DNA of 64,000 bases, taken from Patescibacteria group bacterium. Its GTDB lineage: Bacteria > Patescibacteriota > Patescibacteriia > Patescibacteriales > UBA12465. Shown here one piece after another: positions 2,932 to 40,218 of this stretch. The DNA lies in contig JBBQHF010000002.1 in assembly GCA_038323715.1 (NCBI GenBank), positions 15,102 to 79,101 on the forward strand. The letters run 5' to 3'. The notes under the pieces were generated by a model, which worked only from the letters and a program-made list of their open reading frames with translations, searched no databases and had not been told where the DNA came from. Position 1 is the first letter of the stretch; each line of letters starts with the position of its first letter. The translations under genes and the position numbers were made by a program.

Positions 2932-3292
2932 TAATTTGAAAAAATAAAGCAATTAATAAAAACAGGGGGAAGGTCAACCACAACAAAGCAAGGGTGATTA
3001 AAATTAATAACCAAATAACTAACATCGCTCCTCGCGCTATAATTTGAATAAAACGAATGAAAAAGCTAATCACCCTACCAGCAATATCATACTGGCCATA
3101 CATCGGAACAAAAATATTCTTAAGCCAAATACTAAAACCTAAGGATTTCGCTTGGTTACGCAAAAAGTTGAGCTCTTTTTTCAAGGTCTCAATAAATCCG
3201 ACGCTATACCACCAAAGTGGAAAATAAAGAATCTCGCCTATGGTTTGAAAGAATATCTTTCCCCCATAAGTTAAGAAGTTATGCCTCAACAT
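2924..3292 (-). CDS. Small polytopic membrane protein, no recognisable family, translationally coupled to the downstream membrane Clp ATPase
   Basis: The 122-aa ORF has hydrophobic stretches (AMLVIWLLILITLALLWLTFPLFLLIALFF). Its TAG stop overlaps the ATG of the next gene. Confidence 0.55.
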   Translation of the reverse strand: MLRHNFLTYGGKIFFQTIGEILYFPLWWYSVGFIETLKKELNFLRNQAKSLGFSIWLKNIFVPMYGQYDIAGRVISFFIRFIQIIARGAMLVIWLLILITLALLWLTFPLFLLIALFFQING

Positions 3293-3491: not shown

Positions 3492-6131
3492 ATGTTTAAT
3501 AAATTTACCGATAAATCCCAAGAAGTAATCATTAATTCTCAAGTAATCGCCTCAAATTATGGCCAACATAATATTGAGGCTCTTCATATATTTTTAGCTC
3601 TGCTTGAACAAAATGAAGGCTTAGTAAAACCAATTTTAGAAAAATTAAAAATTGATCCAGAAGTGATGGAAGAGGTTGTAATCAAAGAACTTAAACATTT
3701 ACCTGGAACTAAAATAACCCCTCACGCCGGGCCAGTTCAAGCTGTTTCGGGAACTGCTGAAACGGCCGCTATTTTAGAAAGAGCCCAAAAAGAGGCCGAC
3801 GGCATGAATGATGAATTTATTTCAACTGAACATATTTTGCTCGCTCTAATAGGAATCAATTCTCCTGCACAAAAAATACTATTAGATTTCAAAGTTGAAT
3901 ATCAAACAGTCAAAGGTATTCTAAAAAATTTACGTGGTAATCAAACAATAAGTGACCCCTTCCCTGAAAATAAATTTCAAGTCCTAGAAAAATATACAAC
4001 CAACCTAACTGAACTGGCGAGACAAGAAAAATTAGATCCTGTTATTGGTCGCGATATGGAAATAAGAAGAATCATGCAGGTACTTCTTCGTCGTACAAAA
4101 AATAATCCAGTTTTAATTGGTGAGGCTGGAACCGGAAAAACGGCTGTTGTTGAAGGACTAGCGCAAAGGATAGTGTCAGGGGATGTTCCGGAGAACCTTA
4201 AGAATAAAGAAATTATTTCTTTAGATTTAGGCTCAATTGTGGCTGGCGCTAAGTTTAGGGGTGAATTTGAAGATCGTTTAAAAGCTATTTTAAAAGAAGT
4301 TAAATCGCAGAATGGTCGTTTAATTCTTTTCATTGACGAACTACACACCCTTATCGGCGCCGGCGCATCGGAAGGGTCAATGGATGCTTCTAATATGTTA
4401 AAACCGGCTCTTGCTCGTGGCGAACTCCGGACTATTGGCGCGACCACAACCAAAGAATATCAAAAATATATTGAAAAAGACGCCGCACTAGAAAGAAGAT
4501 TCCAACCAATTTATGTTTCCGAGCCAAGCGTAGAAGATACTATTAGCATGTTGCGCGGATTAAAAGAAAAATATGAAGTCCATCACGGCGTTAGAATTAC
4601 TGACAACGCTTTAATCGCGGCCGCTAAACTTTCTAATCGTTATATTAGTGATCGTTTTTTGCCAGACAAAGCAGTAGATCTTATAGACGAAGCCACCTCC
4701 TCATTACGGATGGAAATTGATTCTATGCCCGACGAGCTAGACCAGTTAAAAAGAAAAATAATTCAGCTAGAACTGAACAAAGCGGGCCTAATGACTACTG
4801 ATAAAAAATCTTCCAAAATCAGAGCCATTAATCAAGAATTGGCTAAAATAAAAGAGAGCTCAACCCAGCTTGAGCTTCACTGGAATAACGAAAAAAATAT
4901 TATTTCTCAAATAAGAATTTCTAAAAAAGAAATAGAAGATTTAAAAATAAAAGCAGAAATTTCCCAAAGACAAGGAGCTGATTTAACAGAGGTGGCTAAA
5001 ATAAAGTACGGTCTTATCCCAGAACTAGAAAATAAAATTAACAAATCACAAGAGGAATTATTAAAAATACAAAAAAGAGGCCAAAGAATATTAAAGGAAG
5101 AGGTTGACGAAGAAGATATCGCTAAAGTAGTGGCTCGCTGGACAGGGATACCAGTAAACAGAATGTTGCAGGATGAAATCAAAAAATTAAGTGATGCCGA
5201 AAAAGACCTTAACCAAGAAGTTGTCGGGCAAGAAGATGCTATTAAAGCTGTAGCTAATGCTTTAAGAAGGTCGCGCGCTGGGATTAATGAAGAAAAAAGA
5301 CCAATCGGTTCATTCTTATTTGTTGGTCCAACCGGAGTCGGAAAAACCGAGCTCGCTAAAACTCTGGCCAAATTCATGTTTGATGATGAACGCTCTTTGA
5401 TTAGGTTAGATATGAGCGAATTTATGGAAAAGCATTCCGTTGCCAAACTTATTGGCTCTCCTCCAGGATATATCGGGCACGATGATGGGGGGCAGTTAAC
5501 CGATAAAGTTCGCCGACATCCTTATAGCGTGGTCTTATTTGATGAAATAGAAAAAGCCCATCCCGACATGTTTAATGTTTTACTGCAAATACTTGATGAT
5601 GGACGTTTAACCGACTCAAAAGGAAGAGGTATAAATTTCAAGAATACTATTGTTATTATGACTTCCAACCTTGGTAACGAAGTTATAAAACATTATTCTA
5701 TTGGCTTTAGTGATGAAAGCGACAAAAAACAAGCGACCAAGATGCGCACCGAAGAAATGAAAGAAAAAATTGATAAAATTTTAAAAGAACATTTCAAGCT
5801 TGAGTTCTTAAATAGAATAGATGAGGTGGTTCTCTTTCATAGCTTATCCCCTGAAGCTTTAGAAAAAATAGTAGATTTAGAATTACAAAAAGTAGAAAAA
5901 AGATTAGCCGGAAAAAATATCGACTTGAAGGTTGGTGTTAAAGTCAAAAAAATGTTAGCCGAAAAAGGCTATGACATCACTTATGGGGCACGCCCACTAA
6001 AGAGAATTATTCAAAATCTAATTCTAGATGAGTTAGCTCTAGAAATAATTGAAGGAAAAATAAAAGAGGGTGGTAAGGTAAAGATCGACCTAGAGGAAAA
6101 AAATAAAATAGCGATTAAAATAATAAAATAA
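3492..6131 (+). CDS. clpB: Chaperone/disaggregase ClpB (long M-domain) with an extra IGF-containing loop in D2
   Basis: Clp_N repeats; D1 GEAGTGKT / [10 protein letters not shown]; a ~135-aa coiled-coil M-domain; D2 [12 protein letters not shown] / [10 protein letters not shown]; [16 protein letters not shown]; GARPLKR. Confidence 0.9.
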
Positions 6132-6138
6132 TAAAAAT

Positions 6139-6166
6139 AAAAACCCGTCAATTGATGGGTTTTTTG
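6139..6166 (+). terminator. Intrinsic terminator after clpB
   Basis: AAACCCGTCAATTGATGGGTTT hairpin followed by a T-run. Confidence 0.65.
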
Positions 6167-6231
6167 ATTGCCGAACCCTAAAAAGTATACTATAATAAGA
6201 ATTAAATACTTCAAAAAGATTATTTAAATAA

Positions 6232-7731
6232 ATGAAAAAAATGAAAAATCAACAAACAGTAGCTATATCTCTAATATTAGCCATCCTAATTACATTTTTT
6301 AGTTTTAGTGTCAACTCCGTCCATGCTCAAATAGCAATAGACCCAAATTTTAATCCGCACAACATAATATCTGATGCGGATCTGATGGATGCTAGCGCGA
6401 TGAGTTTAGCTGAAATCCAAAACTTTTTACAAAGTAAGAACAGCTATTTAGCAAATTATATCGCCCCCAATAATACCGGTATTGCAAAAACGGCCGCCGA
6501 AATCATATATGATGCCACAAATAATAATTTTAATTGTGACGGCGCAATCTTAAGCGATACTCCAACAGATGCGGAAAAAAGATTAAAATGCCAAACAATT
6601 AAAACTGTAAATCCTAAATTTATTTTAGTCCTTTTACAAAAAGAGGCTAGTTTAATAGAAGACACGTCGCCAGCACAGGCTCGTCTTGATTGGGCGGCAG
6701 GATACGGTTGCCCAGATAATTGGGCCTGTAATCCTTATTACAAAGGTTTTGGAAAACAAGTAAATAGTGCCGCCTTACAATTTTTAGCATACATGAATGA
6801 ACAAGAAAAATATAAGTACCAAGCCGGTAAAACATATGTTTTCACAAACCCCTATGGCACAATTTCTAATGAACCGATGTCAGTAACCCCACAAAACAAA
6901 GCAACGGCCGCTTTATATAACTACACCCCTCATGTTTTTAATGGTAATTATAATGTTTATAAACTATTTAACCGTTATTTTCCAAATACTCCATTCTCCG
7001 CTATTTATCCAGACGGTTCACTAGTTAAATCGGACGGCGGCTCAGGAATCTGGCTGATAGAAAATGGTAAAAAAAGGCCTTTCTTAAATTATTCATCCTT
7101 CATTTCACGTTTCAATCCTAATCAAATATTAATAGCCTCAAAAACTATAATTGACGGATATCCAAATGGAGAGAATATTAAATTTCCGGATTATTCTCTA
7201 GTACAAACTCCAGATAAAAAAATATATTTGTTAGTCGGAAACGAGAAAAGACAATTTGACAGTTTAAGTGCCTTTAAATCTATTGGGTTTAATGTTGAAG
7301 AAATTGAACTAGCCACAGAAACAGAGCTAGCAAGTTATGCAATTGGAAAAACAATTACTGCTACCTCCAGTTATGTAACTGGCGCCTTGCTACAAGACCA
7401 AACTACTGGCGGAGTATTCTATGTTGAAAATAATACCAAAGCTCCTTTGCTAGATAGAATTTTACTAACAACTAAATTTAAAGGTAAAAAAATAATTAAG
7501 GTTTCACCAACTATACTCAATTCCTATCAAAAAATTGCCCCCGTATTATTTGGCGATGGCATATTATTGAAAACAGACTCTTTCCCAACTGTATATCTAG
7601 TATCAAATGGCAAAAAAAGACCATTTGCCAATGAAAATATTTTCAAATCTTTAGGTTATAATTCTACTAACGTAATAAGTGTATCTTCACAGTTTTTAGC
7701 TAATTACCCTCAAGGTGAAATAATTCAATAA
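6232..7731 (+). CDS. Secreted protein: N-terminal Cys-containing domain plus four C-terminal ~58-aa repeats, family unknown
   Basis: Signal peptide (MKKMKNQQTVAISLILAILITFFSFSVNSVHA). The C-terminal repeats each carry a (V/I)(Y/W)L(I/V)xNGKKRPF-type core. Confidence 0.6.
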   Translation: MKKMKNQQTVAISLILAILITFFSFSVNSVHAQIAIDPNFNPHNIISDADLMDASAMSLAEIQNFLQSKNSYLANYIAPNNTGIAKTAAEIIYDATNNNFNCDGAILSDTPTDAEKRLKCQTIKTVNPKFILVLLQKEASLIEDTSPAQARLDWAAGYGCPDNWACNPYYKGFGKQVNSAALQFLAYMNEQEKYKYQAGKTYVFTNPYGTISNEPMSVTPQNKATAALYNYTPHVFNGNYNVYKLFNRYFPNTPFSAIYPDGSLVKSDGGSGIWLIENGKKRPFLNYSSFISRFNPNQILIASKTIIDGYPNGENIKFPDYSLVQTPDKKIYLLVGNEKRQFDSLSAFKSIGFNVEEIELATETELASYAIGKTITATSSYVTGALLQDQTTGGVFYVENNTKAPLLDRILLTTKFKGKKIIKVSPTILNSYQKIAPVLFGDGILLKTDSFPTVYLVSNGKKRPFANENIFKSLGYNSTNVISVSSQFLANYPQGEIIQ

Positions 7732-9943: not shown

Positions 9944-10912
9944 ATGTCCAGTAACAACGAGGTTAATAAAATAAGATTGATTTTCATGGGCACTCCAGAT
10001 TTTGCCCTCCCTGGTTTTAAGTCATTAATTGCAGATAATAGTTTTGAGATCATTGGAGTATATACTAAAGCAGACAAACCAATAGGGCGAAAACAACTTT
10101 TAACTCCACCGCCTGTTAAAGTATTAGCTGAGGAAAATAACATTCCTGTTTTTCAGCCAGAAAAAATAAAATTAGAAATAGAAAATATCAAAAATTTAAA
10201 ACCAGATTTAATAGTTGTTATAGCGTACGGAAAAATAATCCCTCAGGAAATATTAGATATTCCAAAATATGGCTGTATCAATGTTCATGCTTCCCTATTA
10301 CCTAAATATCGGGGAGCCGCCTGTTTAAACGCGCCGATATTAAATGGAGACAGCGAAACTGGTATTACAATTATGAAAATGGAAGCCGGACTGGATACCG
10401 GGCCGATTTTAAGACAAGTAAAAATGGAATTAATGGGTAAAGAAAGTTTGGCTGACGTCCATGATTATCTTTCTAATTTAGGAGCCAAAATACTTCCAGA
10501 TACAATACACGACTGGATATCTGGCAAAATAACGCCCCAAATTCAAGATGAGACAGCGGCCAGCTATATTAAAACTTTAGATAAAGAAGATGCTAGAATA
10601 AACTGGGATAAGCCTGCTCAAGAAATAGAAAGAATGATACGCGCTTTTAACCCTTGGCCGGGTACTTTTTGTTATACTAAAGAAAATAAAATTTTAAAAA
10701 TATTAGAAGCAACCGTTAGCCAAAGTGGCCCCGAAGACTCGTTACCAGAGCAAAAAATAGGCCAAGTTTCAATCAAAAATGGCGAATTGACAGTTAAGTG
10801 CGAACAAGATAATATAATTATATTAAAATTACAGGTTGAAGGAGGAAGGGCCATGAACATCAAAGATTTCTTAAGTGGGCACCAAGATTTTATTAATCAA
10901 ATTTTAAAATAA
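9944..10912 (+). CDS. fmt: Methionyl-tRNA formyltransferase
   Basis: IFMGTPDFALP, NVHASLLPKYRGAA, and a C-terminal Fmt domain. Adjacent to def. Confidence 0.9.
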   Translation: MSSNNEVNKIRLIFMGTPDFALPGFKSLIADNSFEIIGVYTKADKPIGRKQLLTPPPVKVLAEENNIPVFQPEKIKLEIENIKNLKPDLIVVIAYGKIIPQEILDIPKYGCINVHASLLPKYRGAACLNAPILNGDSETGITIMKMEAGLDTGPILRQVKMELMGKESLADVHDYLSNLGAKILPDTIHDWISGKITPQIQDETAASYIKTLDKEDARINWDKPAQEIERMIRAFNPWPGTFCYTKENKILKILEATVSQSGPEDSLPEQKIGQVSIKNGELTVKCEQDNIIILKLQVEGGRAMNIKDFLSGHQDFINQILK

Positions 10913-14580: not shown

Positions 14581-16269
14581 TTATCGCATCAAATCGGGAG
14601 CGGGGGCAATTGCCGGAACGGATTCCATCATTCCTTGAGAGCCGCCAACTGAACCAGAAACGGCACCACCCGCCTGGATAGTTTTATACATAATTCCTGG
14701 CTGGTTACCAAGTTCATTCATCATTTCTTTAACCAAGGGGACAACAACGTATTTCTGGCCGTAATAATTAACGCCTTCAGGAATCTTAACAATTGGGAAT
14801 ATTAAAGCTGGAACTAATAATTCTTCATTACGATTGTCAACATATCTATATATCTGAGTATAAGATATTTCCGGGGTTCCTAATTCTATAGTTTGAGTAT
14901 TTTCTGGCGACTGATAATAATAATTTCCATTCCAGCCACCATTTTCCGCTAATTTAATAAGTTTATCACTAGAAGTTTCTAAATCATATTTAGACGACTC
15001 ATAACGATAAGGGACTAAACCGCTTAAACCAGAGGCAACTTTTTTATTTAGATTAATGGAAACTCGTAAACCAGCATAATTGCCGCTTTGATCTCTGACC
15101 GCCTTGCCATCAACCAACAAAGGATAAATAACAGTGGCATATTCAGGAATATAAAAATTAGCCTGATCGGTTGTCCTAGTATAATCATCACGCCAATAAT
15201 TGTCTACTAAGGCGGCGCCATAATGTTCAAGATTAACCGTATGAACTGCTAAAAATTTATCAGCTAAGGAAATTAAATCAGAATCTGCCGGGACATCACC
15301 GATTTTTATTCTATATCTATCCCAACAAGCCGAATCCCCTCCGCAAGCATCTCTTTCTGGGGTGGTCCATTTTTCCCAATTTTCATTAATATTAATAGTT
15401 CCTTCATTGAAATCAAAATAAATCATTAAACCAAGATTCTTATCCTCTGTTAAAGTTATATTTGAAGCTTTTAAGTCACTAAAAGCGGATAAACTAAAAC
15501 CATCGAAATCAAAACCTCCTATTAACCCAGCCATATTTTTAGCAATGGTCGGACTACCTTTAATACGACGATATACTTGCCCGCTTTCATCAGTGAGGTT
15601 AAGCGTATCGCCTTTATAAACATATTGAAACCCATAAAAAGGTGGCATTATTTTCATATCAGGAGCGATGGCGGAGACCGCAATGCCTGAATTCGCCTGA
15701 GCAGTGTCCATTGTTGCAAGAGAAACGCGAGACATCTCTGCTCCAGCAAAAGTCCCTCCTCCTCCGCTCAAAGCCATGGCCGACGTTTTTTCGGAAGGGC
15801 TATTAACAGCAGTTCCTAAACTGGCTAAATCGCCGAAGGCTCCAGCCGATAAGACCCTGACCGCCTCCTGATTTTCATCACCAGCACCCGCCACTTTATT
15901 ATTTATTTCTTGAGCGTCTTTTTGTGGGTTAATCAGATGTGATATTTGGGGTTTCACAAAGAAAACCACAGCGACACTAATTACCGCCAAAGATCCCAGC
16001 GCTAAATAAAACTTTTTATTCATATTGTTAGAGTTAAATATACTATTTAAATTTTTAGATTCTTTTGATTCTATTTCCGTTTCCGTCTCAGGAGAAATTT
16101 GCATAAATTCCGCTTTTAATCTCGTAGCAAAAGCAGCGTCAAATTTTGTATCCGGTTTTGCATTCTGCATACGACTTACCAGAACTAAAAGTTCTCTTTC
16201 ATATAGTTTCAAATCCGGTTCAAGGGCATATAATTCTTGAAGAATTTTTTTTAGTTCAGCTTCTTGCAT
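14581..16269 (-). CDS. Putative anti-sigma factor: single-pass membrane protein with a large extracytoplasmic domain
   Basis: Overlaps the stop of the upstream ECF sigma gene by 19 nt. Cytoplasmic N-terminus, one TM helix (FYLALGSLAVISVAVVFFV), and ~450 aa outside. No zinc-finger anti-sigma motif seen. Confidence 0.45.
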   Translation of the reverse strand: MQEAELKKILQELYALEPDLKLYERELLVLVSRMQNAKPDTKFDAAFATRLKAEFMQISPETETEIESKESKNLNSIFNSNNMNKKFYLALGSLAVISVAVVFFVKPQISHLINPQKDAQEINNKVAGAGDENQEAVRVLSAGAFGDLASLGTAVNSPSEKTSAMALSGGGGTFAGAEMSRVSLATMDTAQANSGIAVSAIAPDMKIMPPFYGFQYVYKGDTLNLTDESGQVYRRIKGSPTIAKNMAGLIGGFDFDGFSLSAFSDLKASNITLTEDKNLGLMIYFDFNEGTININENWEKWTTPERDACGGDSACWDRYRIKIGDVPADSDLISLADKFLAVHTVNLEHYGAALVDNYWRDDYTRTTDQANFYIPEYATVIYPLLVDGKAVRDQSGNYAGLRVSINLNKKVASGLSGLVPYRYESSKYDLETSSDKLIKLAENGGWNGNYYYQSPENTQTIELGTPEISYTQIYRYVDNRNEELLVPALIFPIVKIPEGVNYYGQKYVVVPLVKEMMNELGNQPGIMYKTIQAGGAVSGSVGGSQGMMESVPAIAPAPDLMR

Positions 16270-28582: not shown

Positions 28583-28768
28583 ATAGATAAAATAATAATT
28601 TAGAAGCTTTAACCTTGCTTCTACTATCATTCTAGTCCTTTTTTTGGCTTTTTAAAAGGGTGCGAGGACATAAATAGCCTTCTGTCAAGATTTATTTTAT
28701 TGTAATAATATATTAAAATGTAAGCGTGGGAATAACAATATTTTTTGTTTATAATTAAGACTTTTTAT

Positions 28769-29284
28769 ATGAGCGATAAAAAAATAGAGGATGAGAAAAA
28801 AGAAGCTGAAGATATTTATAAACGTCCGTCTTGGGATGAATATTTTATGAATATAGTAAGCATGGTCGCTAGCCGCGGTTCATGTAATCGCGGTCGCACT
28901 GGATGTGCCATCACTCGCGATAGACGAATCGTATCAACTGGTTATGTGGGGTCTCCGATGGGGTTAGCCCACTGTGATGAGGTTGGGCATGAAATGCATA
29001 CCGTGACCCATGAAGACGGTAGTCAAACTAGCCACTGTATTAGAACTGTTCATGCCGAACAAAATGCCATCTGCGAGGCGGCGCGTATGGGTATTGCCCT
29101 TGAGGGCGGAACGTTGTATTGTAAAATGTCACCGTGTTACACCTGCGCTAAAATGATAATTAATGCCGGCATTAAAAGAGTGGTCTGTGCTCAAGATTAT
29201 CAAGCTGGCGCCAGAAGCAAAGAAATTTTTAAAGAAGCAGGGGTTGAATATGTACTGCTATCAGATGAGATGGCTAAATATTAA
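28769..29284 (+). CDS. comEB: dCMP deaminase (ComEB-type cytidine/deoxycytidylate deaminase)
   Basis: Zinc motifs HAEQNAI and PCYTCAKMIINAGIKRV, plus N-terminal SWDEYFMNIV. The ATG at 28769 is preferred over the TTG at 28745 used by the ORF track. Confidence 0.88.
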   Translation: MSDKKIEDEKKEAEDIYKRPSWDEYFMNIVSMVASRGSCNRGRTGCAITRDRRIVSTGYVGSPMGLAHCDEVGHEMHTVTHEDGSQTSHCIRTVHAEQNAICEAARMGIALEGGTLYCKMSPCYTCAKMIINAGIKRVVCAQDYQAGARSKEIFKEAGVEYVLLSDEMAKY

Positions 29285-29305
29285 AATGAAATAATATATT
29301 AAATT

Positions 29306-30595
29306 ATGTCTAACATTTTTATCTACGATGAATTTAACCCCGAAGATGTTGCAATGATGCAAGCTCTTTACTCCAGAAGCCCAAAAAGCGTTACCGAACA
29401 CGTTGAAAAAGTAAGGCAAAGTGGCTCGGGCAAATTCATGGCAACATTTTACGTTGGCTATGGACATGCTAGCATTGCTGATTGTGGTAGCACCACAATT
29501 TTTATAGAAAATGTGAGTATTATCGCCGACAAGGCAATTCAAGATTGGCAATTGTACAGCGGCCAAGAAACTAGCACCAGGTATATTGATATGGGCAAAC
29601 AAAATATTATTGACCCACTCAATACTCAGGCATCAAAGGATATAATTAATAGTTGGATGAATTTTTATATTAGTAATCAAGAAAGAATTCAAGCCCACTT
29701 GATGACCAAATACCCCAAACAAGAAAGCGAAGATGAAAATGTTTATTTAAAAGCAATTAAAGCCAGGGGATTTGATATTATGCGTGGATTCTTACCCGCT
29801 GGAATCACGACTCAATTAAGTTGGCACACCAATTTACGACAAGCTTGGGATCATCTTGCTCTACTTCGCCACCATCCTCTAACTGAAGTACGAGAAACGG
29901 CTAATAGTATACTGGAAAAATTAAAAGAAAAATACGAACACAGTTTTTCACATGTTCTTAGTGATGAGCAAGAAACATATAGAGACCGTTGCGTAAAAGA
30001 ATATTCCTATTTTGCTCCAACAAATATTGTTGATTTTGAAATGTCTACCACTATCGCGGCTAATGGATTAGAACAATATCAAACCATAATTGATAATCGT
30101 CCACCAAAAATTGGCCTACCAGTATTTATGGGCGATTTGGGCAGCTTCACTTTTGATTTTATTTTAGATTTTGGATCCTTTAGAGATATCCAACGTCACC
30201 GTAACGGAGTCTGTCGCATGCCGCTTCTTACAACCACTCTCGGTTTTCATAATTGGTATTTAGAACAACTGCCGGCCGACTTAAAAAAAGAAGCGTTAGA
30301 GTTAATTGCAACTCAAACCGTTAAATTGGATAAGCTAGAAACTAGTCCAGAAATCAAACAATATTATATTGCCATTGGCTTTAATGTTTCTTGCCAGGTA
30401 ACCTACCCCTTGCCAGCGGCTGTATACGTTACTGAATTACGCTCTAATAAAACCGTGCACCCTTCTTTGAGAAATATAGCTCATAAAATGTACCACGCCA
30501 TATCAGAGGCCTTCCCCAATCTAAAACTACATGCCGATTTAGATATGGACGACTGGGATATTCGTCGCGGCTTAGCAGATATAATAAAAAAATAA
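29306..30595 (+). CDS. Tandem-domain ThyX-like (flavin-dependent thymidylate synthase family) protein with complementary degenerate motifs
   Basis: The N-half has GHASIADCGSTTIFIENVSIIADKAIQDWQLYSGQETSTRY (SxRY kept, RHR lost) and MRGFLPAGITTQLSWHTNLRQAWDHLALLRHH. The C-half has FTFDFILDFGSFRDIQRHRNG (RHR kept, SxRY lost) and VYVTELRSNKTVHPSLRNIA. Confidence 0.65.
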   Translation: MSNIFIYDEFNPEDVAMMQALYSRSPKSVTEHVEKVRQSGSGKFMATFYVGYGHASIADCGSTTIFIENVSIIADKAIQDWQLYSGQETSTRYIDMGKQNIIDPLNTQASKDIINSWMNFYISNQERIQAHLMTKYPKQESEDENVYLKAIKARGFDIMRGFLPAGITTQLSWHTNLRQAWDHLALLRHHPLTEVRETANSILEKLKEKYEHSFSHVLSDEQETYRDRCVKEYSYFAPTNIVDFEMSTTIAANGLEQYQTIIDNRPPKIGLPVFMGDLGSFTFDFILDFGSFRDIQRHRNGVCRMPLLTTTLGFHNWYLEQLPADLKKEALELIATQTVKLDKLETSPEIKQYYIAIGFNVSCQVTYPLPAAVYVTELRSNKTVHPSLRNIAHKMYHAISEAFPNLKLHADLDMDDWDIRRGLADIIKK

Positions 30596-30597
30596 TT

Positions 30598-31152
30598 ATG
30601 CCTAAAATAATTATCGGCCTCGTCGGTCCTATTGCGAGCGGAAAAGATGTTAGTAAAAAATACTTGGAAGAAAAATATAATGCTTCTAGTTATAAATTTT
30701 CAACAGTTTTAAGGGATATGCTTAAAAGATTATATCTCCCAGTAAACCGAGAGAATATGCAAGATCTTTCTTTTGATCTTAGGGGGCGTTTCGGAGGAGA
30801 TATTCTAGCAAAAGTTATTGCTGAGGATGCTAAAAATGACCAAAAGGATATTGTCATAATTGACGGAGTAAGACGCCTTGATGATATAGTTCATTTAAGC
30901 GGGCTGCCTGAATTTAAATTGATAAGCGTCGACGCCAAAATAGATAGTCGCTACGAAAGAACTAAAAGCCGAAATGAGAATTTAGGAGATGATAAAAAAA
31001 CTTTTGCGGAATTTTTAGTTGATTGTAACAAAGAAGCAGAATTAGAAATACCAAAAGTAATGTCAGCAGCGCACTATCAACTTCAAAATGATAGCTCACT
31101 AGAGGATCTTTATGTTAAAATAGACGAAATAATTTCCCAAATAAAAAAATAA
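30598..31152 (+). CDS. P-loop nucleotide/nucleoside-monophosphate kinase-like protein (CoaE / dNMP-kinase-like fold)
   Basis: Walker A IIGLVGPIASGKDV and the IIDGVRRLDDI segment. Its size (184 aa) and its context between the ThyX-like gene and Tmk-Dut also fit. Confidence 0.5.
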   Translation: MPKIIIGLVGPIASGKDVSKKYLEEKYNASSYKFSTVLRDMLKRLYLPVNRENMQDLSFDLRGRFGGDILAKVIAEDAKNDQKDIVIIDGVRRLDDIVHLSGLPEFKLISVDAKIDSRYERTKSRNENLGDDKKTFAEFLVDCNKEAELEIPKVMSAAHYQLQNDSSLEDLYVKIDEIISQIKK

Positions 31153-31156
31153 ACAT

Positions 31157-32503
31157 ATGGAAAATGTATCCGGAAAATTTATCGTAATTGACGGCACCGA
31201 TGGTAGCGGAAAGACTACCCAGCTTAGCTTATTGAAAGATAAGTTAGAGTTTGAAGGATATGCGGTTGAAGTCGCTGATTTCCCCCAGTACAATACGAAG
31301 TCAGCGGGGTTGGTTGAAGAATATCTTTCCGGAAAATATGGCCAAGCAAATGACGTTGACCCATACAAAGCTTCAATCTTTTATGCTGTTGACCGCTTTG
31401 ATGCTAGTTCTAAAATCAAAAGATGGTTACAAGAAGGAAAAGTCGTGTTAGCAAATCGTTATACTAGTGCTAGTCTCGGTCATCAAGGATGTAAAATTGA
31501 TAACCCCCTAGAAAGAAAGGTTTTTTTCAATTGGCTTTACGATTTAGAATATAAAATATTTGAAATACCAAAACCAGATTTAACAATAATTTTACAAGTT
31601 GAGCCAGAAATATCTTTTACTTTAGCTAGAGACAGAGCGCGCGAGGATTGGAAAGGAAAAACTACCGATATTCATGAAAATAATTTTGAGCATTTAAAGA
31701 AGGCGGAACAAACATATTTAGAAATAGCCAATAATCTTCCGGGATTTAGACTAATAAAATGCACCCACAATAACCAAATACTAAGTCGAGAGTCTATCCA
31801 CTTTCTTGTTTGGCTAGCGGCTAGTCAAATAGTAGTGCACCAAGCTAAAATCCGTTCCGGTTTTGAACAGATAGGAAATTTAATGGGTTCCAATCCTCAA
31901 ATAATGAAAAATCGTGATTTGATTTTTAATAATACAGAAAATTCTCAAATAACTAAACCGGAAGAAATAAAACCAGACACAGTCTCAACCGAAGTTAAGA
32001 CCCCCGTGCCAGAAAAAATAATAGCAGAGGTCCCGGCGTCAATATTAAAAACTCCCGAACCAGTTACCCAAAAAATAATTCATAAACTAATAATTGAAAA
32101 GACTTCCCCTGAATCAAAAATTCCGCAGAAAGCTCATGCTGAAGATGCTGGTTATGATTTATATGCCAATGATTATTATTCCATTACTGCTTACGGGCAG
32201 GCCTTAGTTTCTACCGGCATTAAAATGGTCATTCCTAACGGTTTTGCTGGGCTTATTTGGGACAAAAGTGGACTAGCAAACGAAGGGATAACCACGATGG
32301 GGGGAGTAATTGATTCTAATTACCGGGGTGAGATAAAAGTAATTGTTAAAAATTTAAGTGAAGATATATTTAATATTGTTCCTGGTCAAAAAATAGCCCA
32401 AATTATAATCCAAAAAATTTACGAATTAGAGTTGGAGACCGGAAAAGTAGATAACGATACTGAGCGTCAAGCATCCGGATTTGGCAGTTCTGGTAAATTC
32501 TAA
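31157..32503 (+). CDS. Thymidylate kinase - dUTPase fusion protein
   Basis: The N-terminal Tmk has FIVIDGTDGSGKTTQ and LANRYTSAS. A Pro/Lys/Glu-rich linker spans aa ~225-307. The C-terminal Dut has AEDAGYDLYA, GVIDSNYRGEI and RQASGFGSSG. Confidence 0.85.
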   Translation: MENVSGKFIVIDGTDGSGKTTQLSLLKDKLEFEGYAVEVADFPQYNTKSAGLVEEYLSGKYGQANDVDPYKASIFYAVDRFDASSKIKRWLQEGKVVLANRYTSASLGHQGCKIDNPLERKVFFNWLYDLEYKIFEIPKPDLTIILQVEPEISFTLARDRAREDWKGKTTDIHENNFEHLKKAEQTYLEIANNLPGFRLIKCTHNNQILSRESIHFLVWLAASQIVVHQAKIRSGFEQIGNLMGSNPQIMKNRDLIFNNTENSQITKPEEIKPDTVSTEVKTPVPEKIIAEVPASILKTPEPVTQKIIHKLIIEKTSPESKIPQKAHAEDAGYDLYANDYYSITAYGQALVSTGIKMVIPNGFAGLIWDKSGLANEGITTMGGVIDSNYRGEIKVIVKNLSEDIFNIVPGQKIAQIIIQKIYELELETGKVDNDTERQASGFGSSGKF

Positions 32504-32518
32504 ATTAACTTTTAATAT

Positions 32519-34024
32519 ATGAACTATCAAACTATTATTGGTTTAGAAATTCACGCCGAACTAAAAACAAAGAGTAAAATGTTTTGTTCTTGTGATAACG
32601 ACTCTGAAGGCAGGGCCGCTAATACAACCGTCTGCCCTATTTGCCTCGGTCATCCAGGAACGCTTCCCGTCCCCAATAAAAAAGCGATTGAATCAGTTAT
32701 TGCCGTCGGATTAGCATTGAATTGCAAAATAAATCGTTTTTCAAAATTTGATAGAAAAAATTATTTTTACCCCGACCTTCCTAAAGGTTATCAAATTTCC
32801 CAATATGACCAGCCGCTGGCTTTTAATGGATTTTTAGAAATAAAAGACGACAACATATCAATCACCAGGATTCACCTAGAAGAAGACACTGGCAAGTCTT
32901 TTCATCCTAAGGGCGAAGAGTATACCCTGATTGACTTTAATCGCGCTGGGACCCCCTTGATGGAGCTAGTAACCGACCCTGTGATTAAAGATGCTGAGCA
33001 AGCCAAGCTTTTCTGCCAAAAATATCAGCAAATATTACGTTATCTAGATATTAGTGATGCTGACATGGAAAAGGGGCAAATGCGTTGCGAAGCTAATGTT
33101 AGCGTTCAAGTGCCTGGTTCCTTTAAACACAATCAGGGATTAATAAAACCGATTGGGAAACACAAATTAAACAATAAGGTTGAGGTTAAAAATATTAATT
33201 CTTTCCGCGCTTTAGAAAAAGCAATTAATTTTGAAATTAAACGTCAAACCGAACTTCTAGAAAAAGGCGAAGAAATCAAAGGCGAAACTCGAGGATGGGA
33301 TGATAAAAAAAATGAAACGATTAGCCAGCGAGTAAAGGAAAGCTCGTCTGACTATCGCTATTTCCCTGAGCCAGACATTCCGCCCCTAGAAATAGATGGG
33401 GCCTGGCTGGCCGACATAAACGCCAGCTTACCAGAATTACCAGACGCTAAATTAAAACGCTTCGCACGTGAATACGGCCTTAGTAAAGAAATAATAGAAA
33501 TTATAATCAGCGACAAAAAATTAGCTAACTGGAGTGAACAGGTTATTTCTGAGCTAAGTGCCTGGATAGAGGCTAACGGGGACGAAGCAGACAGGCAAGA
33601 CAAGAAACTGGCACAAATTGCCGGCAATTGGATAACGGGGGAGCTTATGAAACACCTGAAGGCTAATAACGAAACTGCAGCTGATTTAAAAATGACGGCA
33701 GAAAATTTTGCGGAATTAGTAGCTCTAATATATCAGGGTAAAATAAATTCATCAGCCGGCCAGACCATTTTAGACTTTATGTATAACCAAGGAGGAGACC
33801 CGAGCGATATAATGCTTAAAATGGGACTAGAACAAATGGATGATGAGGCAGCGCTCGCTAAAACAATTACTAAAGTAATCGCCGAGAACAAAGAACAATC
33901 CGAGCAATATAAACAAGGGAAAACTAATGTTATTCAATTTCTACTAGGAAAAGTCATGGCCAGCACCGGAGGTAAAGCTAACCCCAAAACTACTAAAACG
34001 CTATTAGAAAAATTACTAAAATAA
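32519..34024 (+). CDS. gatB: Asp/Glu-tRNA amidotransferase subunit B
   Basis: MNYQTIIGLEIHAELKTKSKMFCSC, PGTLPVPN, RCEANVSV, and a C-terminal YqeY-like tail. Confidence 0.92.
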   Translation: MNYQTIIGLEIHAELKTKSKMFCSCDNDSEGRAANTTVCPICLGHPGTLPVPNKKAIESVIAVGLALNCKINRFSKFDRKNYFYPDLPKGYQISQYDQPLAFNGFLEIKDDNISITRIHLEEDTGKSFHPKGEEYTLIDFNRAGTPLMELVTDPVIKDAEQAKLFCQKYQQILRYLDISDADMEKGQMRCEANVSVQVPGSFKHNQGLIKPIGKHKLNNKVEVKNINSFRALEKAINFEIKRQTELLEKGEEIKGETRGWDDKKNETISQRVKESSSDYRYFPEPDIPPLEIDGAWLADINASLPELPDAKLKRFAREYGLSKEIIEIIISDKKLANWSEQVISELSAWIEANGDEADRQDKKLAQIAGNWITGELMKHLKANNETAADLKMTAENFAELVALIYQGKINSSAGQTILDFMYNQGGDPSDIMLKMGLEQMDDEAALAKTITKVIAENKEQSEQYKQGKTNVIQFLLGKVMASTGGKANPKTTKTLLEKLLK

Positions 34025-34030
34025 AAAATA

Positions 34031-34060
34031 AAAAACACCTTTCTAATTAGGTGTTTTTTG
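34031..34060. terminator. Bidirectional intrinsic terminator (gatB / miaA)
   Basis: AACACCT-TTCTAATT-AGGTGTT hairpin flanked by A- and T-runs, between convergent genes. Confidence 0.7.
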
Positions 34061-36332: not shown

Positions 36333-38189
36333 TTATTTTTTAATATTTTTCAGACTATCAGCCACAGGCTCCGCTTCAATGGCTTGTTTCAATTTATATA
36401 AACCAAAATTATGATTCATTTTTTTAACCAAGCTCATGGTTAACTTGTAAGGTGGTAATTTTCTTTCATTTAAATAAGTGACATCATCTGAGTTCAAATA
36501 AAAATTATAATAATAGACGGGATAATATTTTACCAATTTTGCGGCCGCAGTTAAAACTTCATCATCAGGGATGGTCCCCATTATTACTCTACGATCGGGA
36601 AAGAAAAATTTATCATAATATCTAGTTATGATGATTGAATCTTGTTCCGTAATATTAAAAACCTGACGCGCATTAGCTTGTTCAGCTAGGTTATTATAAT
36701 ACAAATAGGCCACGCCTTCTTCGGAACCATACAAAACAAATAAAATACCTGAAATGGATATAAACACTACTAAAGCAGCTTGCACTCCAGCGATAGCTAT
36801 TTTTCGCCAACGTTGTTTTACTTCTTGACCGGCTAGAAAAAGAGCGCTGCTAACTCTAGCAATTGCTAAAGAAGCAATTGGAATCATCATTAAGTATATT
36901 GGTAACCAATAACGAGTATACGAATTGCCAATTGTGAATCGATTCGGGTCTGGGTTATCATTAAACTTCCAGCTACCATAATAAAATATCAAAATAACAC
37001 TAATTATTCCAAATACTAAAAAATAGGCTAAATATTTTTTTTGAAACTTTCTAATATTAATAATAGCAATAATAAGTAGCCCCAATAAAAACCCGACGGT
37101 TATGATAGGAAACATCTCTGGGATATAATGTCTGGCCATACTAATTGATTGTCCTGGTTTAAAACCAAAATAAAACACATTACGATATATGGCCTCAAAA
37201 TATTGATTATATTGACCACCGCCACTGACCGCGGTTTTAATTAATTCCGATCCAGTTTTAGATAAATCGTCTATGGAGCGATTCATTTCATTATAACCAC
37301 CATAAATAGGCGCTGAATACAGAACTTGATTAAAATAAGCATTTGGCAACACGGCTAAAAAGAACCCACAAAAAATTAAAACAAGCTTTATAAAACCTAA
37401 ACGCTTAACATAAAATAACCAAGCGATAAACGCCGCTGGCGCAAGCCAAATTATCTCCGAGGATCTAGTTATAAGAGCTAATCCCATAAACCCGCCACCA
37501 ACAAAAGCAGCTAACATTTTTAGCCAAGCCAATAAGCCGATTCTTAAAGTAAAAAATTTTTTATAAAAAGATATCTTGACGGCATCCTCCAATTTATTTA
37601 TTTTATTTCCCGCCGCCAACACTATAAAGTATATTCCAAAAATTGTTAACACTATAAAAAGCACATTATGAAACATACTCCTCATCGAGTAATAGATGTA
37701 AACTGGAAAAAAAGCTAACAAAAAAGCAGAAATTAAGGCCACTCTATCAGAAATAACTTTTTTCACTAAAAGATAAAAAAATATGATACCAAGCGCGGCA
37801 AAAAAGGGCGTTAAAAATGGAATGACGGCAGACCCAAAAATAGAACCAATACTGCCATACATTAAAATAATACCCAAAAAACTAACGGGCTTCAGCCAAC
37901 CAAAATCGCTTCTAACGCTCCTGGGCATAACCATGTTGTCTCCGACAACTGCCGCTGAATCAAAAAATGCCAAATTTTCTCCTTCACTATAACGATTAGC
38001 AAAAAAATAATTTGCAGTTTCATCAGGGGAAGACCATTTAACATAGTCTGGCTGTTGAGTAAAATAATTAAAAGCCGAGGTAAAGACAAAAAAAGTCATC
38101 GCCAATAATACGACTATTACTAAATTTATATGAGTTTTAATCTTTATTTTCATCAATTTAATGTTATCCGAAATTGCCATTTTTAGCAA
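36333..38189 (-). CDS. Large polytopic membrane protein, GT-C (ArnT/PMT-like) glycosyltransferase candidate
   Basis: More than 10 TM helices. The first external loop carries SSPDETANYFFANRY, similar to the acidic xDExxY motif of GT-C enzymes. The start is uncertain (ATGs at 38189, 38180 and 38153). Confidence 0.45.
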   Translation of the reverse strand: MLKMAISDNIKLMKIKIKTHINLVIVVLLAMTFFVFTSAFNYFTQQPDYVKWSSPDETANYFFANRYSEGENLAFFDSAAVVGDNMVMPRSVRSDFGWLKPVSFLGIILMYGSIGSIFGSAVIPFLTPFFAALGIIFFYLLVKKVISDRVALISAFLLAFFPVYIYYSMRSMFHNVLFIVLTIFGIYFIVLAAGNKINKLEDAVKISFYKKFFTLRIGLLAWLKMLAAFVGGGFMGLALITRSSEIIWLAPAAFIAWLFYVKRLGFIKLVLIFCGFFLAVLPNAYFNQVLYSAPIYGGYNEMNRSIDDLSKTGSELIKTAVSGGGQYNQYFEAIYRNVFYFGFKPGQSISMARHYIPEMFPIITVGFLLGLLIIAIINIRKFQKKYLAYFLVFGIISVILIFYYGSWKFNDNPDPNRFTIGNSYTRYWLPIYLMMIPIASLAIARVSSALFLAGQEVKQRWRKIAIAGVQAALVVFISISGILFVLYGSEEGVAYLYYNNLAEQANARQVFNITEQDSIIITRYYDKFFFPDRRVIMGTIPDDEVLTAAAKLVKYYPVYYYNFYLNSDDVTYLNERKLPPYKLTMSLVKKMNHNFGLYKLKQAIEAEPVADSLKNIKK

Positions 38190-38226
38190 GAATTTGCTAT
38201 TATTAAGTTATAACGAAAGTTTAATT

Positions 38227-40218
38227 ATGAAATCTGAAGTGATTAACCAAATACGCTCCAAAATAAGCCAAAATATTAGCATTCTATTAGCGCTTTTAAT
38301 AATTTTTAGCGCCATTGTTTATTATTTATATGCCCTAAATACTCAAGGCGTATTTTTATCAATTATTTTATCTATTATTAGCTTAATTATTATTAATAAA
38401 TTCGGGATTTTACCAAAAATTAATATAATTCAAAATAATAACCATCAAACGCCAGATTTCAACCCTCAAAAAATAAAACTTTTTATTATTTACGGGGCCT
38501 TTTTATTAGCCTCAGTCTTTGAACTCATCTCGGCGTCTAGTGGCCGATCGCTTATCTCTCCCTGGGAAGTAGTAAACAAAAGCTTTTTCTTATTTTATTT
38601 TTTTAGCGCTTTAATGCTCATTATTCTAGTTGTCCGCACAGACATCAAAAATAATTTGAAGCTATTTTTAATAGGCGCCCAATATTTTTTAAGCTTAGCA
38701 ATTGCCGCCATAGTTTATAAAGTAGGATACGGATTTGATCCTTTTATCCATAAAGCGGCCATGGAAATAATAGACCAGAACGGAATCATTTTGCCTAAGA
38801 CTCCATATTACATCGGGCAATATGGCTTAATCCTCGCCCTTCATAAAATATTTAACATTTCCATCTACCTACTAAATAAATTTCTAGTTCCAATCGCTGC
38901 CGCCTGTCTCTTGCCCTCAATAATTTATAATTTTTTTAAAACTTTAAAAATAAAAGATACGAGTTTTAGTTTTGCGCCGTTTATCGGAACAATATTTCTT
39001 TTAATTTTTACCTTTCCTTTATTTATCGTCAGCACTCCACAAAATTTTAGCTATCTATTTATCATAATTTCTATTGCGACCGGTCTAACCGATAAAAATC
39101 CTTGGCGAGCAACAATTTTTTCATTCGCAACCGCAGCTATCCACCCGATATCGGGCATCCCCGCCATTATTTGGAGCAGTTGGTTAGTATTTAAAAAATA
39201 CCAAACTAAATTAAGTATTAAAAATAGCAAGCTAATATCGGCCGGCATCCTCTCTGGTAGCGCGATTCTTCTTCCAGTTGCCCTGTTTATTACCAGCGGC
39301 GGGAAATTAAACAACCTTCATTTCAACATCAGCTCTTTTATAAGCCCCGCTTACGATGTCCTAAAATTTTTTAGTGCTGGCAGCGAAAATTGGCTTCTCA
39401 ATCTAACTTATTTTTTATTTTACAACTATAAATTAATAATTTTAATTTTAATAATAAGTGGCTTAATTTTATTTTATAAAAAATTAAACCAACATCCCGC
39501 CTTAGTTGAAAAATTAAGTACCTGGAGAGGACTACTTTCTATTGGAGCATCTCTTATTGTTGCCTTTTTCTTAAGTAGCCAGATAAACTTTAACCAATTA
39601 ATTGCCTACGAACAATCAGATTATAACAATCGAATTTTAACAATTATCACAATATTTTTTATTCCCTTTTTAGCAATCGCTGTAAATTGGCTCATTTATA
39701 AAATTATTTTTTTAAAAAATAACCTGATTACTGTAATTTGGATTACAATTGGGCTTATTTTTATGACGAGTTCTCTATACTTGGCCTACCCCCGTTTTGA
39801 TAAATATTTTAATTCACGAGGATATAGTACTAGCACGCTAGATTTGGAAGCGGTTACTAAAATAGACAAAGGCACAAACAATAACTATATTGTTTTAGCC
39901 AATCAACAAGTTTCTGCTGGCGCTTTAAGATTATTAGGCTTTAACCACTATTATCAAAGCGCCATTGGCGATATCTACTTCTACCCGATTCCAACGGGCG
40001 GCGCCCTATACCAATACTATCTTGATATGGTATACCAAAAACCCGACCGAGAAACAATGCTAACCGCAATGAACCTGGCCGGGGTAGATGAGTCTTATTT
40101 GGTAATTAATAAATACTGGTATGAAAGTGGCAAAATAATAAATGCCGCTAAATTAACCGCCGACAGCTGGGAGTTTATCGGAGAAAAAGAAATTTTTATT
40201 TTTAAATATAATAGATAA
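38227..40218 (+). CDS. Large polytopic membrane protein with a C-terminal soluble domain, family unknown
   Basis: More than 12 hydrophobic helices, then a ~140-aa C-terminal non-membrane region. The start is taken at ATG 38227 (MKSEVINQ) because the longer ORF overlaps the divergent gene. Confidence 0.45.
   Translation: MKSEVINQIRSKISQNISILLALLIIFSAIVYYLYALNTQGVFLSIILSIISLIIINKFGILPKINIIQNNNHQTPDFNPQKIKLFIIYGAFLLASVFELISASSGRSLISPWEVVNKSFFLFYFFSALMLIILVVRTDIKNNLKLFLIGAQYFLSLAIAAIVYKVGYGFDPFIHKAAMEIIDQNGIILPKTPYYIGQYGLILALHKIFNISIYLLNKFLVPIAAACLLPSIIYNFFKTLKIKDTSFSFAPFIGTIFLLIFTFPLFIVSTPQNFSYLFIIISIATGLTDKNPWRATIFSFATAAIHPISGIPAIIWSSWLVFKKYQTKLSIKNSKLISAGILSGSAILLPVALFITSGGKLNNLHFNISSFISPAYDVLKFFSAGSENWLLNLTYFLFYNYKLIILILIISGLILFYKKLNQHPALVEKLSTWRGLLSIGASLIVAFFLSSQINFNQLIAYEQSDYNNRILTIITIFFIPFLAIAVNWLIYKIIFLKNNLITVIWITIGLIFMTSSLYLAYPRFDKYFNSRGYSTSTLDLEAVTKIDKGTNNNYIVLANQQVSAGALRLLGFNHYYQSAIGDIYFYPIPTGGALYQYYLDMVYQKPDRETMLTAMNLAGVDESYLVINKYWYESGKIINAAKLTADSWEFIGEKEIFIFKYNR

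Follow-up and report, generated by a model that had tools for sequence, protein, structure and literature searches.

General features of the gene cluster

Analysis of a 64,000-nt stretch of DNA (the window) from a Patescibacteria group bacterium (GenBank assembly GCA_038323715.1, contig JBBQHF010000002.1, positions 15,102 to 79,101 of the forward strand) revealed a module of four genes at window positions 28769 to 32503. It is probably a chromosomal operon for thymidylate, that is dTTP-precursor, supply in a Falkowbacteria-like member of the Patescibacteria, carrying a duplicated FAD-dependent thymidylate synthase (ThyX) and a putative deoxynucleoside monophosphate (dNMP) kinase. The genes, all on the plus strand, are dcd, encoding a dCMP deaminase (Dcd, ComEB-like) of 171 aa (28769-29284), a gene for a long ThyX of 429 aa (29306-30595), a gene for a P-loop kinase (PLK) of 184 aa (30598-31152), and a gene for a 448-aa fusion of thymidylate kinase and dUTPase, Tmk::Dut (31157-32503). 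The intergenic gaps are 21, 2 and 4 nt, and the initial annotation, made from the sequence alone, was right in describing four head-to-tail genes separated by 2-21 nt. The ATG start of dcd at 28769 was also called independently on assembly L001; a TTG at 28745 is a possible alternative upstream start. The four genes are real and not chance open reading frames (ORFs), because full-length homologues of every one of them number in the hundreds to thousands and their order is conserved in 80 species-level genomes.

The enzymatic steps were assigned from family membership and from catalytic motifs readable in the sequences. Dcd would deaminate dCMP to dUMP and the Dut domain would hydrolyse dUTP to the same product; the long ThyX would convert dUMP to dTMP with FAD, NADPH and methylene-tetrahydrofolate, and the Tmk domain would convert dTMP to dTDP. 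This logic had already been proposed for the cluster, and it stands, since the four enzyme assignments on which it depends hold. What speaks most strongly for production of dTMP from dUMP by the long ThyX is that everything recruited to the module belongs to deoxypyrimidine metabolism. The 184-aa kinase would act as a dNMP kinase at the dCMP/dUMP branch, serving salvaged dNMPs, for example by turning dCMP into dCDP.

Two ThyX domains in one chain

Sequence comparison and structural modelling indicate that the 429-aa protein is an internally duplicated ThyX, both halves of which have the ThyX fold. The N-terminal domain (aa 1-215, positions 29306-29950, plus strand) matches Pfam Thy1 (PF02511) over aa 15-209 with an E-value of 7e-19 and 68.7 bits, against a gathering cutoff of 24.8. 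In the window protein the Thy1 match is confined to this half, and its own C-terminal domain (aa 216-429, positions 29951-30595, plus strand) gives E 0.023 when isolated; among 34 diverse homologues, isolated C halves match Thy1 in 18 cases, with a best E-value of 4.5e-8. The AlphaFold2 model built for the isolated C half has a predicted local distance difference test (pLDDT) score of 91, and in a Foldseek search of the PDB its top 50 matches are all ThyX, with E-values down to 3e-6 and a probability of 1.0. Template-modelling (TM) scores against ThyX structures are 0.5-0.67 over about 190-220 columns, which is nearly the whole domain. The earlier description of this protein as tandem ThyX-like is thus borne out by the Thy1 matches of homologous C halves, the modelled fold and the Foldseek result.

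Other comparisons were less informative. BLASTP found no similarity between the N and C halves, a local hhalign comparison of the half-profiles, while in the correct register, reached only P 0.0066, and a C-half hidden Markov model (HMM) profile found nothing relevant among PDB sequences. In Foldseek the full-length model yielded weak ThyX matches (E about 3e-3) with no domain resolution. The protein ends in a conserved tail, DDWDxRRG, with an invariant Arg421.

Division of the catalytic residues between the halves

Catalytic residues were mapped in the numbering of TM0449 (reference sequence 1kq4), with alignments also to the ThyX of C. glutamicum; hhalign placed the C half in register with TM0449. 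Conservation was followed in 139 diverse long ThyX sequences of 37-79% identity. In canonical ThyX the residues of one active site come from different subunits, and in TM0449 complexes dUMP is bound by Ser88, Arg90, Tyr91, Arg78 and Arg174.

In the long ThyX the equivalents of these and other catalytic residues are divided between the halves, the Ser88 loop and the His53 and Arg147 equivalents lying in the N half and the Arg74, Arg-His-Arg (RHR) and Arg174 equivalents in the C half. TM0449 His53 corresponds to H54 of the N half and is lost from the C half, where by-eye alignment puts P272 at its position, while Glu86, Ser88, Arg90 and Tyr91 are represented by E88, S90, R92 and Y93 in the N half, the corresponding loop of the C half being lost. 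Conversely, Arg78-His79-Arg80 is present as R297-H298-R299 in the C half and lost from the N half, which has D80-W81-Q82. Arg74 aligns with K76 and R293 in the N and C halves, respectively, Arg147 with R160 and Q352, and Arg174 with R188 and R379. Arg165 corresponds to R178 in the N half and is lost from the C half (Pro at the aligned position), and His178 to H190 in the N half and a Thr in the C half, with H385 two residues further on.

Nine residues (S90, R92, R293, D294, R297, R299, R379, H385 and R421) are invariant in all 139 sequences, and four more are nearly so, namely H54 (136 of 139), K76 (137), E88 (135) and R160 (133). The N-half positions 80-82, which replace RHR, vary among the same sequences.

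The pattern suggests that two chains, each the outcome of duplication and fusion, would pair up as a ThyX-like pseudo-tetramer. In this assembly two composite active sites, each joining the RHR and Arg174 equivalents of a C half to the Ser loop, His53 and Arg147 equivalents of an N half, would stay functional, and the remaining two pockets would be abandoned. Such an arrangement would account for the residue losses being complementary and non-random.

Distribution of the long ThyX

The exact ThyX protein is recorded from one NCBI contig and one Logan assembly. Its best 120 matches all come from Patescibacteria or Falkowbacteria and are about 429 aa long, with 69-79% identity. Searched exhaustively, 1.84 billion representatives yielded 1,987 clusters (50% identity) with E<=1e-3, at least 515 of them with E<=1e-30; almost all of the top 150 are 430-500 aa long and are matched over their full length. 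A profile built from distant members extended the family to Ca. Electrothrix aarhusensis, to spirochaete and gammaproteobacterial metagenome-assembled genomes (MAGs) and to Peregrinibacteria. In Ca. Electrothrix the gene is solitary and adjoins that for formate-tetrahydrofolate ligase (FTHFS), and it is likewise a solitary gene in the spirochaete MAG. In databases such proteins are listed as 'FAD-dependent thymidylate synthase'. Chlamydial ThyX, which at about 529 aa is unusually long, might be a further member of the family.

Full-length homologues also occur in the jumbo Vibrio phages vB_VmeM-Yong and BONAISHI and in the Tunturiibacter phage Tunturi_5, at 30-32% identity and up to 97% coverage, mostly annotated as hypothetical. 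In vB_VmeM-Yong MS32 (MK308677.1, locus L086) the long ThyX lies at 4920-6305, with a thymidylate kinase gene about 5 kb away. The duplicated ThyX is therefore not a peculiarity of the Candidate Phyla Radiation (CPR). The one mention of such a form found in the literature is by Valas and Bourne (2009, PMC3224940), who reported that the ThyX of Chloroflexi 'contains a domain duplication' and that this 'has not been characterized'; it very probably belongs to the same family. A literature search on tandem or Patescibacteria ThyX returned nothing useful, the Candidate Phyla Radiation literature found being concerned with Dcd2 and not with ThyX.

The dCMP deaminase and the Tmk::Dut fusion

The dcd product is a member of the dCMP deaminase family. 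It matches Pfam dCMP_cyt_deam_1 (PF00383) with E 7e-23 and 80.8 bits against a cutoff of 25, and PHROG 174 'dCMP deaminase' with E 2e-43, and its translation shows the zinc motif HAE...PCxxC (HAE, PCYTC). Together these confirm the assignment as a dCMP deaminase. The score against the ComEB equivalog TIGR02571, 120 bits, is below the cutoff of 219, and the protein, judged from its sequence, is a deaminase of this family and not the ComEB equivalog.

In the fourth gene the Tmk domain occupies aa 5-202 (31169-31762) and the Dut domain aa 306-447 (32072-32497), both on the plus strand, joined by a linker of about 100 aa that is recognisable as low-complexity by its composition. The Tmk domain matches Thymidylate_kin (PF02223) with E 1e-24 and TIGR00041 with 84.8 bits, above the cutoff of 83.25; its P-loop GTDGSGKTT and the sequence VDRF (motif DR[YF]) are readable. 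The Dut domain matches dUTPase (PF00692) with E 4e-34 and TIGR00576 with 128 bits, above the cutoff of 102.55, and has all five trimeric-dUTPase motifs (AGYDL, KSG, GVIDSNYRGE, KIAQ and RQASGFGSSG). With both domains above their score cutoffs and their motifs readable, the Tmk-Dut fusion recognised in the initial annotation is secure. The fusion would mainly set stoichiometric co-expression of the two enzymes; it does not imply channelling, because the two reactions are non-consecutive.

The two domains form a single ORF in 25 of the 33 relatives in which both were detected. Six more relatives have a second type of Tmk (P-loop GINNLGKST; Pfam Thymidylate_kin E 4.5e-16) fused to Dut. At one locus (L037, 3111-4328) the Dut part of a Tmk-like::Dut fusion looks degenerate, without the AGYDL and C-terminal GFGS motifs.

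The 184-aa kinase

The kinase has the Walker A sequence GPIASGKD. Its profile matches Sulfolobus SSO1041 (UPF0200; PDB 3lw7 and 3h0k) over the full length with E 1e-20 and 77.6 bits, and it matches PHROG 139 'deoxynucleoside monophosphate kinase', also over the full length, with E 4e-17 and 63.6 bits. Positions 153-333 of the PADLOC dCTPase (DcdV/AvcD) model, corresponding to the kinase-domain region, are matched with E 4e-10 and 37 bits. Other comparisons stay below cutoff or are weak: NCBIfam PRK08356, with a cutoff of 189, scores 66 bits, Pfam DNMK (PF21448) 16.9 bits against 27.1 and over the P-loop only, and T4 Dnk (1dek) a weak E 0.037 in the P-loop region. Nine arginines (R39, R44, R51, R62, R92, R93, R118, R121 and R125) are invariant among 31 homologues, a set that fits what would be expected of a nucleotide kinase. 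These comparisons place the protein in a group made up of UPF0200, phage dNMP kinases and the PLK domain of DcdV (AvcD), within which it is to be regarded as a UPF0200 relative and not an equivalog. It had been listed as a P-loop kinase of uncertain specificity; its family, at least, is no longer wholly uncertain. As profile and fold searches put both the ThyX-like protein and the kinase in the expected families, the concern that they might belong to unrelated ones is removed. From homology and context, the kinase is most likely a dNMP kinase at the dCMP/dUMP branch. A literature search on the function of UPF0200 or SSO1041 found nothing.

Full-length homologues of 25-27% identity are encoded by large Bacillus phages, several of them directly beside a thyA-family gene. 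They are annotated variously as dNMP kinase, adenylate-kinase-like or dephospho-CoA kinase, for example in vB_BsuM-Goe3 (KY368640.1, 16090-16674). Moranbacteria-like and other lineages have a second kinase paralogue, distantly related (27-34% identity), within or next to the module (L051 6060-6602, L059 4120-4662, L066 5945-6469, L071 8013-8552, L076 11279-11791), which hints at several substrate specificities.

The similarity to DcdV raises the alternative that the kinase is a partner of Dcd in a split DcdV/AvcD-type enzyme, the two together deaminating dCTP as well as dCMP, or the kinase gating the deaminase through nucleotide binding. Both proteins do match the PADLOC dCTPase model, the deaminase at positions 437-484 with E 2e-22, and both match NCBIfam NF041025; in DcdV itself both domains are necessary if dCTP and dCMP are to be deaminated (bioRxiv 10.1101/2021.03.31.437871); and at seven loci (L045, L051, L059, L060, L066, L067 and L072) the order is dcd-kinase-thyX, with the kinase directly after dcd. 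However, thyX separates dcd from the kinase in the window and in most relatives, and among the matches listed the only fusions of Dcd are with ThyX and none is with the kinase. The two proteins do not form one polypeptide as in DcdV, and their NF041025 scores, 71 and 19.7 bits, are far under the cutoff of 400. The kinase itself scores higher against UPF0200 (77.6 bits) and the phage dNMP kinases (63.6) than against the DcdV model (37). Nor is a defence role likely, given that the gene is a fixed member of a housekeeping operon throughout a phylum. The context is one of housekeeping genes and not a defence island, and no Rfam match indicating an AvcI- or DifV-type small RNA was found upstream, no AvcI-specific model having been used. 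A split DcdV-type enzyme, the main rival reading of the kinase, is accordingly considered unlikely.

Conservation and variation of the module in relatives

The nearest relatives of the sequence are Candidatus Falkowbacteria and other Patescibacteria, in agreement with the CPR origin suggested beforehand. To describe the neighbourhood, 80 GTDB species-level loci around the long ThyX were annotated by tblastn. The order DUF167 (minus strand)-dcd-thyX-kinase-tmk-dut-gatB is identical in 22 of them, and most of the others have subsets or permutations of it, such as dcd-kinase-thyX-tmk or dcd-kinase-dut-thyX; the possibility that the neighbourhood is not conserved among relatives is thereby answered. 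Dcd was found at 71 of the loci and the kinase at 72 (66 by tblastn and six of a divergent GSGKT type), five of the other eight being cut by the end of a contig. In most loci gatB follows the module.

The variable part of the module is also of interest. Fourteen loci lacking a detected Dut carry within the module a 109-aa MazG pyrophosphohydrolase (L023 2827-3156, L032 9932-10261, L067 8550-8879 and 11 other loci). At loci that have both the kinase and Tmk it stands between them, and it looks like a non-orthologous displacement of Dut. Occasional members are thymidine kinase, HD-domain phosphohydrolases, the second kinase paralogue and a single-domain Thy1-like protein, and natural fusions of Dcd to the long ThyX occur, such as P0391 (625 aa) and P0432 (623 aa). 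Several of these variants meet at locus L082, where the order is Dcd::ThyX-kinase-Thy1-like-Tmk-thymidine kinase-GatB. The exchange of Dut and MazG, the two Tmk types, the thymidine kinase and HD-domain members and the Dcd::ThyX fusions together argue for standard deoxypyrimidine metabolism and not for hypermodification.

The extra Thy1-like protein, encoded within the same module in some relatives, is 275-355 aa long and matches Pfam Thy1 with E-values from 8e-9 to 7e-5 (L048 10317-11171, L079 3123-4190, L082 8069-8896).

Transcription unit

The gene gatB, encoding Asp/Glu-tRNA amidotransferase subunit B (32519-34024, plus strand), begins 15 nt past Dut on the same strand; it was recognised as an ORF, and the homologue at locus L082 has GatB_N and GatB_Yqey domains. 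A palindromic hairpin of 11 pairs flanked by A/T runs, AAAAAACACCT...AGGTGTTTTTT, lies at 34030-34059 between the convergent gatB and miaA genes. It is the sole convincing terminator-like site, none comparable being found from dcd to gatB on the plus strand, and is likely a bidirectional terminator. Because gatB follows Dut so closely and the only good hairpin is 3' of gatB, the transcription unit probably comprises five genes, dcd-thyX-kinase-tmk::dut-gatB, with gatB as its last member, outside the nucleotide pathway. Of the initial proposal of one apparent four-gene operon, the co-oriented layout is retained and the extent is revised.

Upstream of dcd, a 47-bp block (28678-28724, plus strand) is invariant or nearly so across 10 species in an alignment in which the flanking intergenic sequence diverges. 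It contains CTGTCA (28682-28687), a 16-nt spacer and TG-n-AATAAT (28701-28709), and no other promoter-like site of the scan has a TG extended -10. The generic scan for promoters and terminators gave counts equal to those from shuffled sequence, that is at chance level, and the support for the promoter comes from the conservation of the block. Transcription would start at this probable conserved promoter (about 28682-28709), pass through gatB and end at the hairpin at 34030-34059. The block sits between dcd and the divergent DUF167 gene and has a perfect TTGACA on the minus strand; it may serve both genes. By-eye inspection of the region 5' of dcd for an NrdR-box-like palindrome gave nothing convincing, and an Rfam scan of the window and of the dcd upstream region found three tRNAs elsewhere and no riboswitch or other upstream element.

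Weighing of the thymidylate reading

Several observations weigh against the interpretation of the module as a thymidylate operon with a functional duplicated ThyX. The long ThyX scores 35.8 bits against the TIGR02170 equivalog and does not reach its cutoff of 87.9. The ThyX motif RHRx7-8S is complete in neither half and only across both, the Arg147 equivalent in the C half is a Gln, and the Arg174 equivalent in the N half is poorly kept, with R in 39 of the 139 sequences. Whether the retained residues would meet in one pocket hinges on the subunit geometry, and in the full-length AlphaFold2 model aa 1-100 have a pLDDT below 50. A literature search found no biochemical or genetic data on any long ThyX. 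The specificity of the kinase is not predictable, its closest solved relative, SSO1041, being without an assigned function, and the evidence for the operon consists of the spacing, a single conserved block and a single hairpin.

The initial annotation had speculated that the extra kinase and the atypical ThyX leave room for a modified-pyrimidine pathway. In that case the module would make a modified pyrimidine nucleotide, such as 5-hydroxymethyl-dUMP or methylated dCMP, and the kinase would phosphorylate the product. Phage base-replacement clusters do use the same enzyme families, and homologues of the kinase (25-27% identity) stand beside 'thyA' in large Bacillus phages that are probably SPO1-like, SPO1 being a phage that swaps thymine for hydroxymethyluracil. 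Furthermore, jumbo phages carry full-length long ThyX, ThyX-family enzymes with other substrates exist, and the long ThyX itself is uncharacterised (PMC3224940). Nevertheless, the position of Dcd upstream and Tmk downstream brackets exactly the step from dUMP to dTMP, and relatives retain Tmk together with Dut or MazG, some of them gaining thymidine kinase. The occurrence of Dcd::ThyX fusions and the use of MazG for Dut fit a plain conversion of dUMP to dTMP. The equivalents of the residues that bind dUMP in TM0449 are kept and mostly invariant, and the long ThyX is solitary in free-living Desulfobulbaceae and spirochaetes. Neither a ThyA-like dUMP/dCMP hydroxymethylase nor a modifying transferase was found among the module proteins or the Pfam-surveyed ORFs of the window; the unit includes no glycosyl-, amino- or pyrophosphoryl-transferase, and the upstream glycosyltransferase family 2 (GT2) genes are on the other strand. 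The production of modified pyrimidines is thus very unlikely, and the speculation is not supported. If it were true, many CPR bacteria and the jumbo phages with long ThyX would have partly modified DNA.

Least credible is an origin of the cassette as a recently acquired phage or mobile-element island of nucleotide metabolism: all four proteins match PHROG families, and large phages have homologues, but identities to phage proteins are just 25-32%, the G+C content of the module (0.36-0.37) equals that of its flanks, housekeeping neighbours (GT2s, DUF167, gatB, miaA and miaB) are kept with it in dozens of species, and no integrase, transposase, other mobile-element gene or repeat boundary was found in the surveyed parts of the window, and the candidate was rejected on its flank-like composition and conserved synteny.

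Implications

The module and its variants indicate that these reduced CPR genomes retain a dTTP supply of their own, starting from dCMP, and do not depend on the import of thymidine nucleotides alone. For much of the CPR the thymidylate synthase appears to be this double-domain ThyX, an essential enzyme in an uncharacterised form. The three-subunit active site of ThyX is hard to dissect by mutagenesis. The long ThyX would be a natural half-of-sites version of the enzyme, in which the fused heterodimer permits single-site mutants. For the UPF0200-type kinases, for which a crystal structure has been available since 2009-2010, the gene context points to a first testable function, in deoxypyrimidine nucleotide metabolism, and connects UPF0200 with the kinase domain found in DcdV/AvcD defence deaminases. 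The alternation of Dut with MazG and of two Tmk types represents non-orthologous displacement inside a conserved module. It is also conceivable, if rather doubtful though likelier than the modified-pyrimidine reading, that the two abandoned pockets of the long ThyX have turned into regulatory nucleotide sites and that the kinase and Dcd are the free-living ancestor pair of DcdV/AvcD.

Other features of the window

The remaining genes of the window include two ClpB-like genes, def, fmt, dnaB, recR, murA, GT2 glycosyltransferases, miaA, miaB, the F-type ATP synthase operon, tatD, hrcA-grpE-dnaK-dnaJ and a gene for a penicillin-binding protein, in addition to the three tRNAs found with Rfam. The presence of fmt, encoding methionyl-tRNA formyltransferase (9944-10912), implies that the organism uses folate cofactors. 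Within the 64-kb window, from a genome of roughly 1 Mb, there is no thyA, folA, ndk or nrd, and a paralogue search of the same 64 kb found no further copy of tmk, dut, thyX, dcd or the kinase gene.

A 342-aa ORF (57360-58388, minus strand) within the hrcA-grpE-dnaK-dnaJ cluster joins DUF1653, a NUDIX hydrolase and GrpE; for a nucleotide-exchange factor such a fusion is unusual. The two ClpB-like AAA+ genes are divergent (208-2952, minus strand, and 3492-6131, plus strand); the former is without a Clp_N domain and has weak nSTAND-type matches in its first ATPase region. Four ORFs of 499-685 aa (6232-7731, 14581-16269, 36333-38189 and 38161-40218) have no Pfam match at E<=1e-6.

Comparison with known systems

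The pathway itself is the textbook dCMP-deaminase route to dTTP. What departs from described systems is the motif-split duplicated ThyX, the kinase of UPF0200/DcdV-PLK type fixed in the operon, and the recurrent Tmk::Dut fusion. The clusters for thymidine hypermodification in phages have a deaminase, a thymidylate-synthase-like enzyme, a P-loop kinase and a dUTPase in common with the module (PMC8989533). Compared with these clusters, the module is without a ThyA-type hydroxymethylase or post-replicative transferases, and its kinase resembles nucleotide kinases.

For the kinase, UPF0200 (SSO1041, 'AdkA-like') provides the best solved relative; the two share the DGVR and Arg-rich motifs, and the window protein differs in having GKD instead of GKS in Walker A. 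The phage dNMP kinases (PHROG 139, T4 gp1 type, 1dek) are viral, whereas the window kinase is cellular and phylum-wide. In DcdV/AvcD the two domains are homologous to the kinase and the deaminase described here, and both systems would act on deoxycytidine nucleotides. Here, in contrast, they are encoded by two genes, usually non-adjacent, in a housekeeping operon, and their expected role is biosynthetic and not the depletion of nucleotides.

The duplicated ThyX of Chloroflexi was described without residue analysis, gene context or CPR members (PMC3224940). Canonical homotetrameric ThyX (TM0449, Rv2754c, PBCV-1 A674R) has the same fold as both halves of the long ThyX, with matches to Pfam Thy1, and each of its residues His53, Arg74, Arg78-His79-Arg80, Glu86, Ser88, Arg90, Tyr91, Arg147 and Arg174 has an equivalent at some place in the long chain. 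Like the canonical enzyme, the long ThyX has its genomic role between the suppliers of dUMP and Tmk. Unlike it, the long form has two domains per chain, with RHR confined to the C half and Ser-x-Arg-Tyr to the N half, and is predicted to have two active sites per four domains, compared with four in canonical ThyX.

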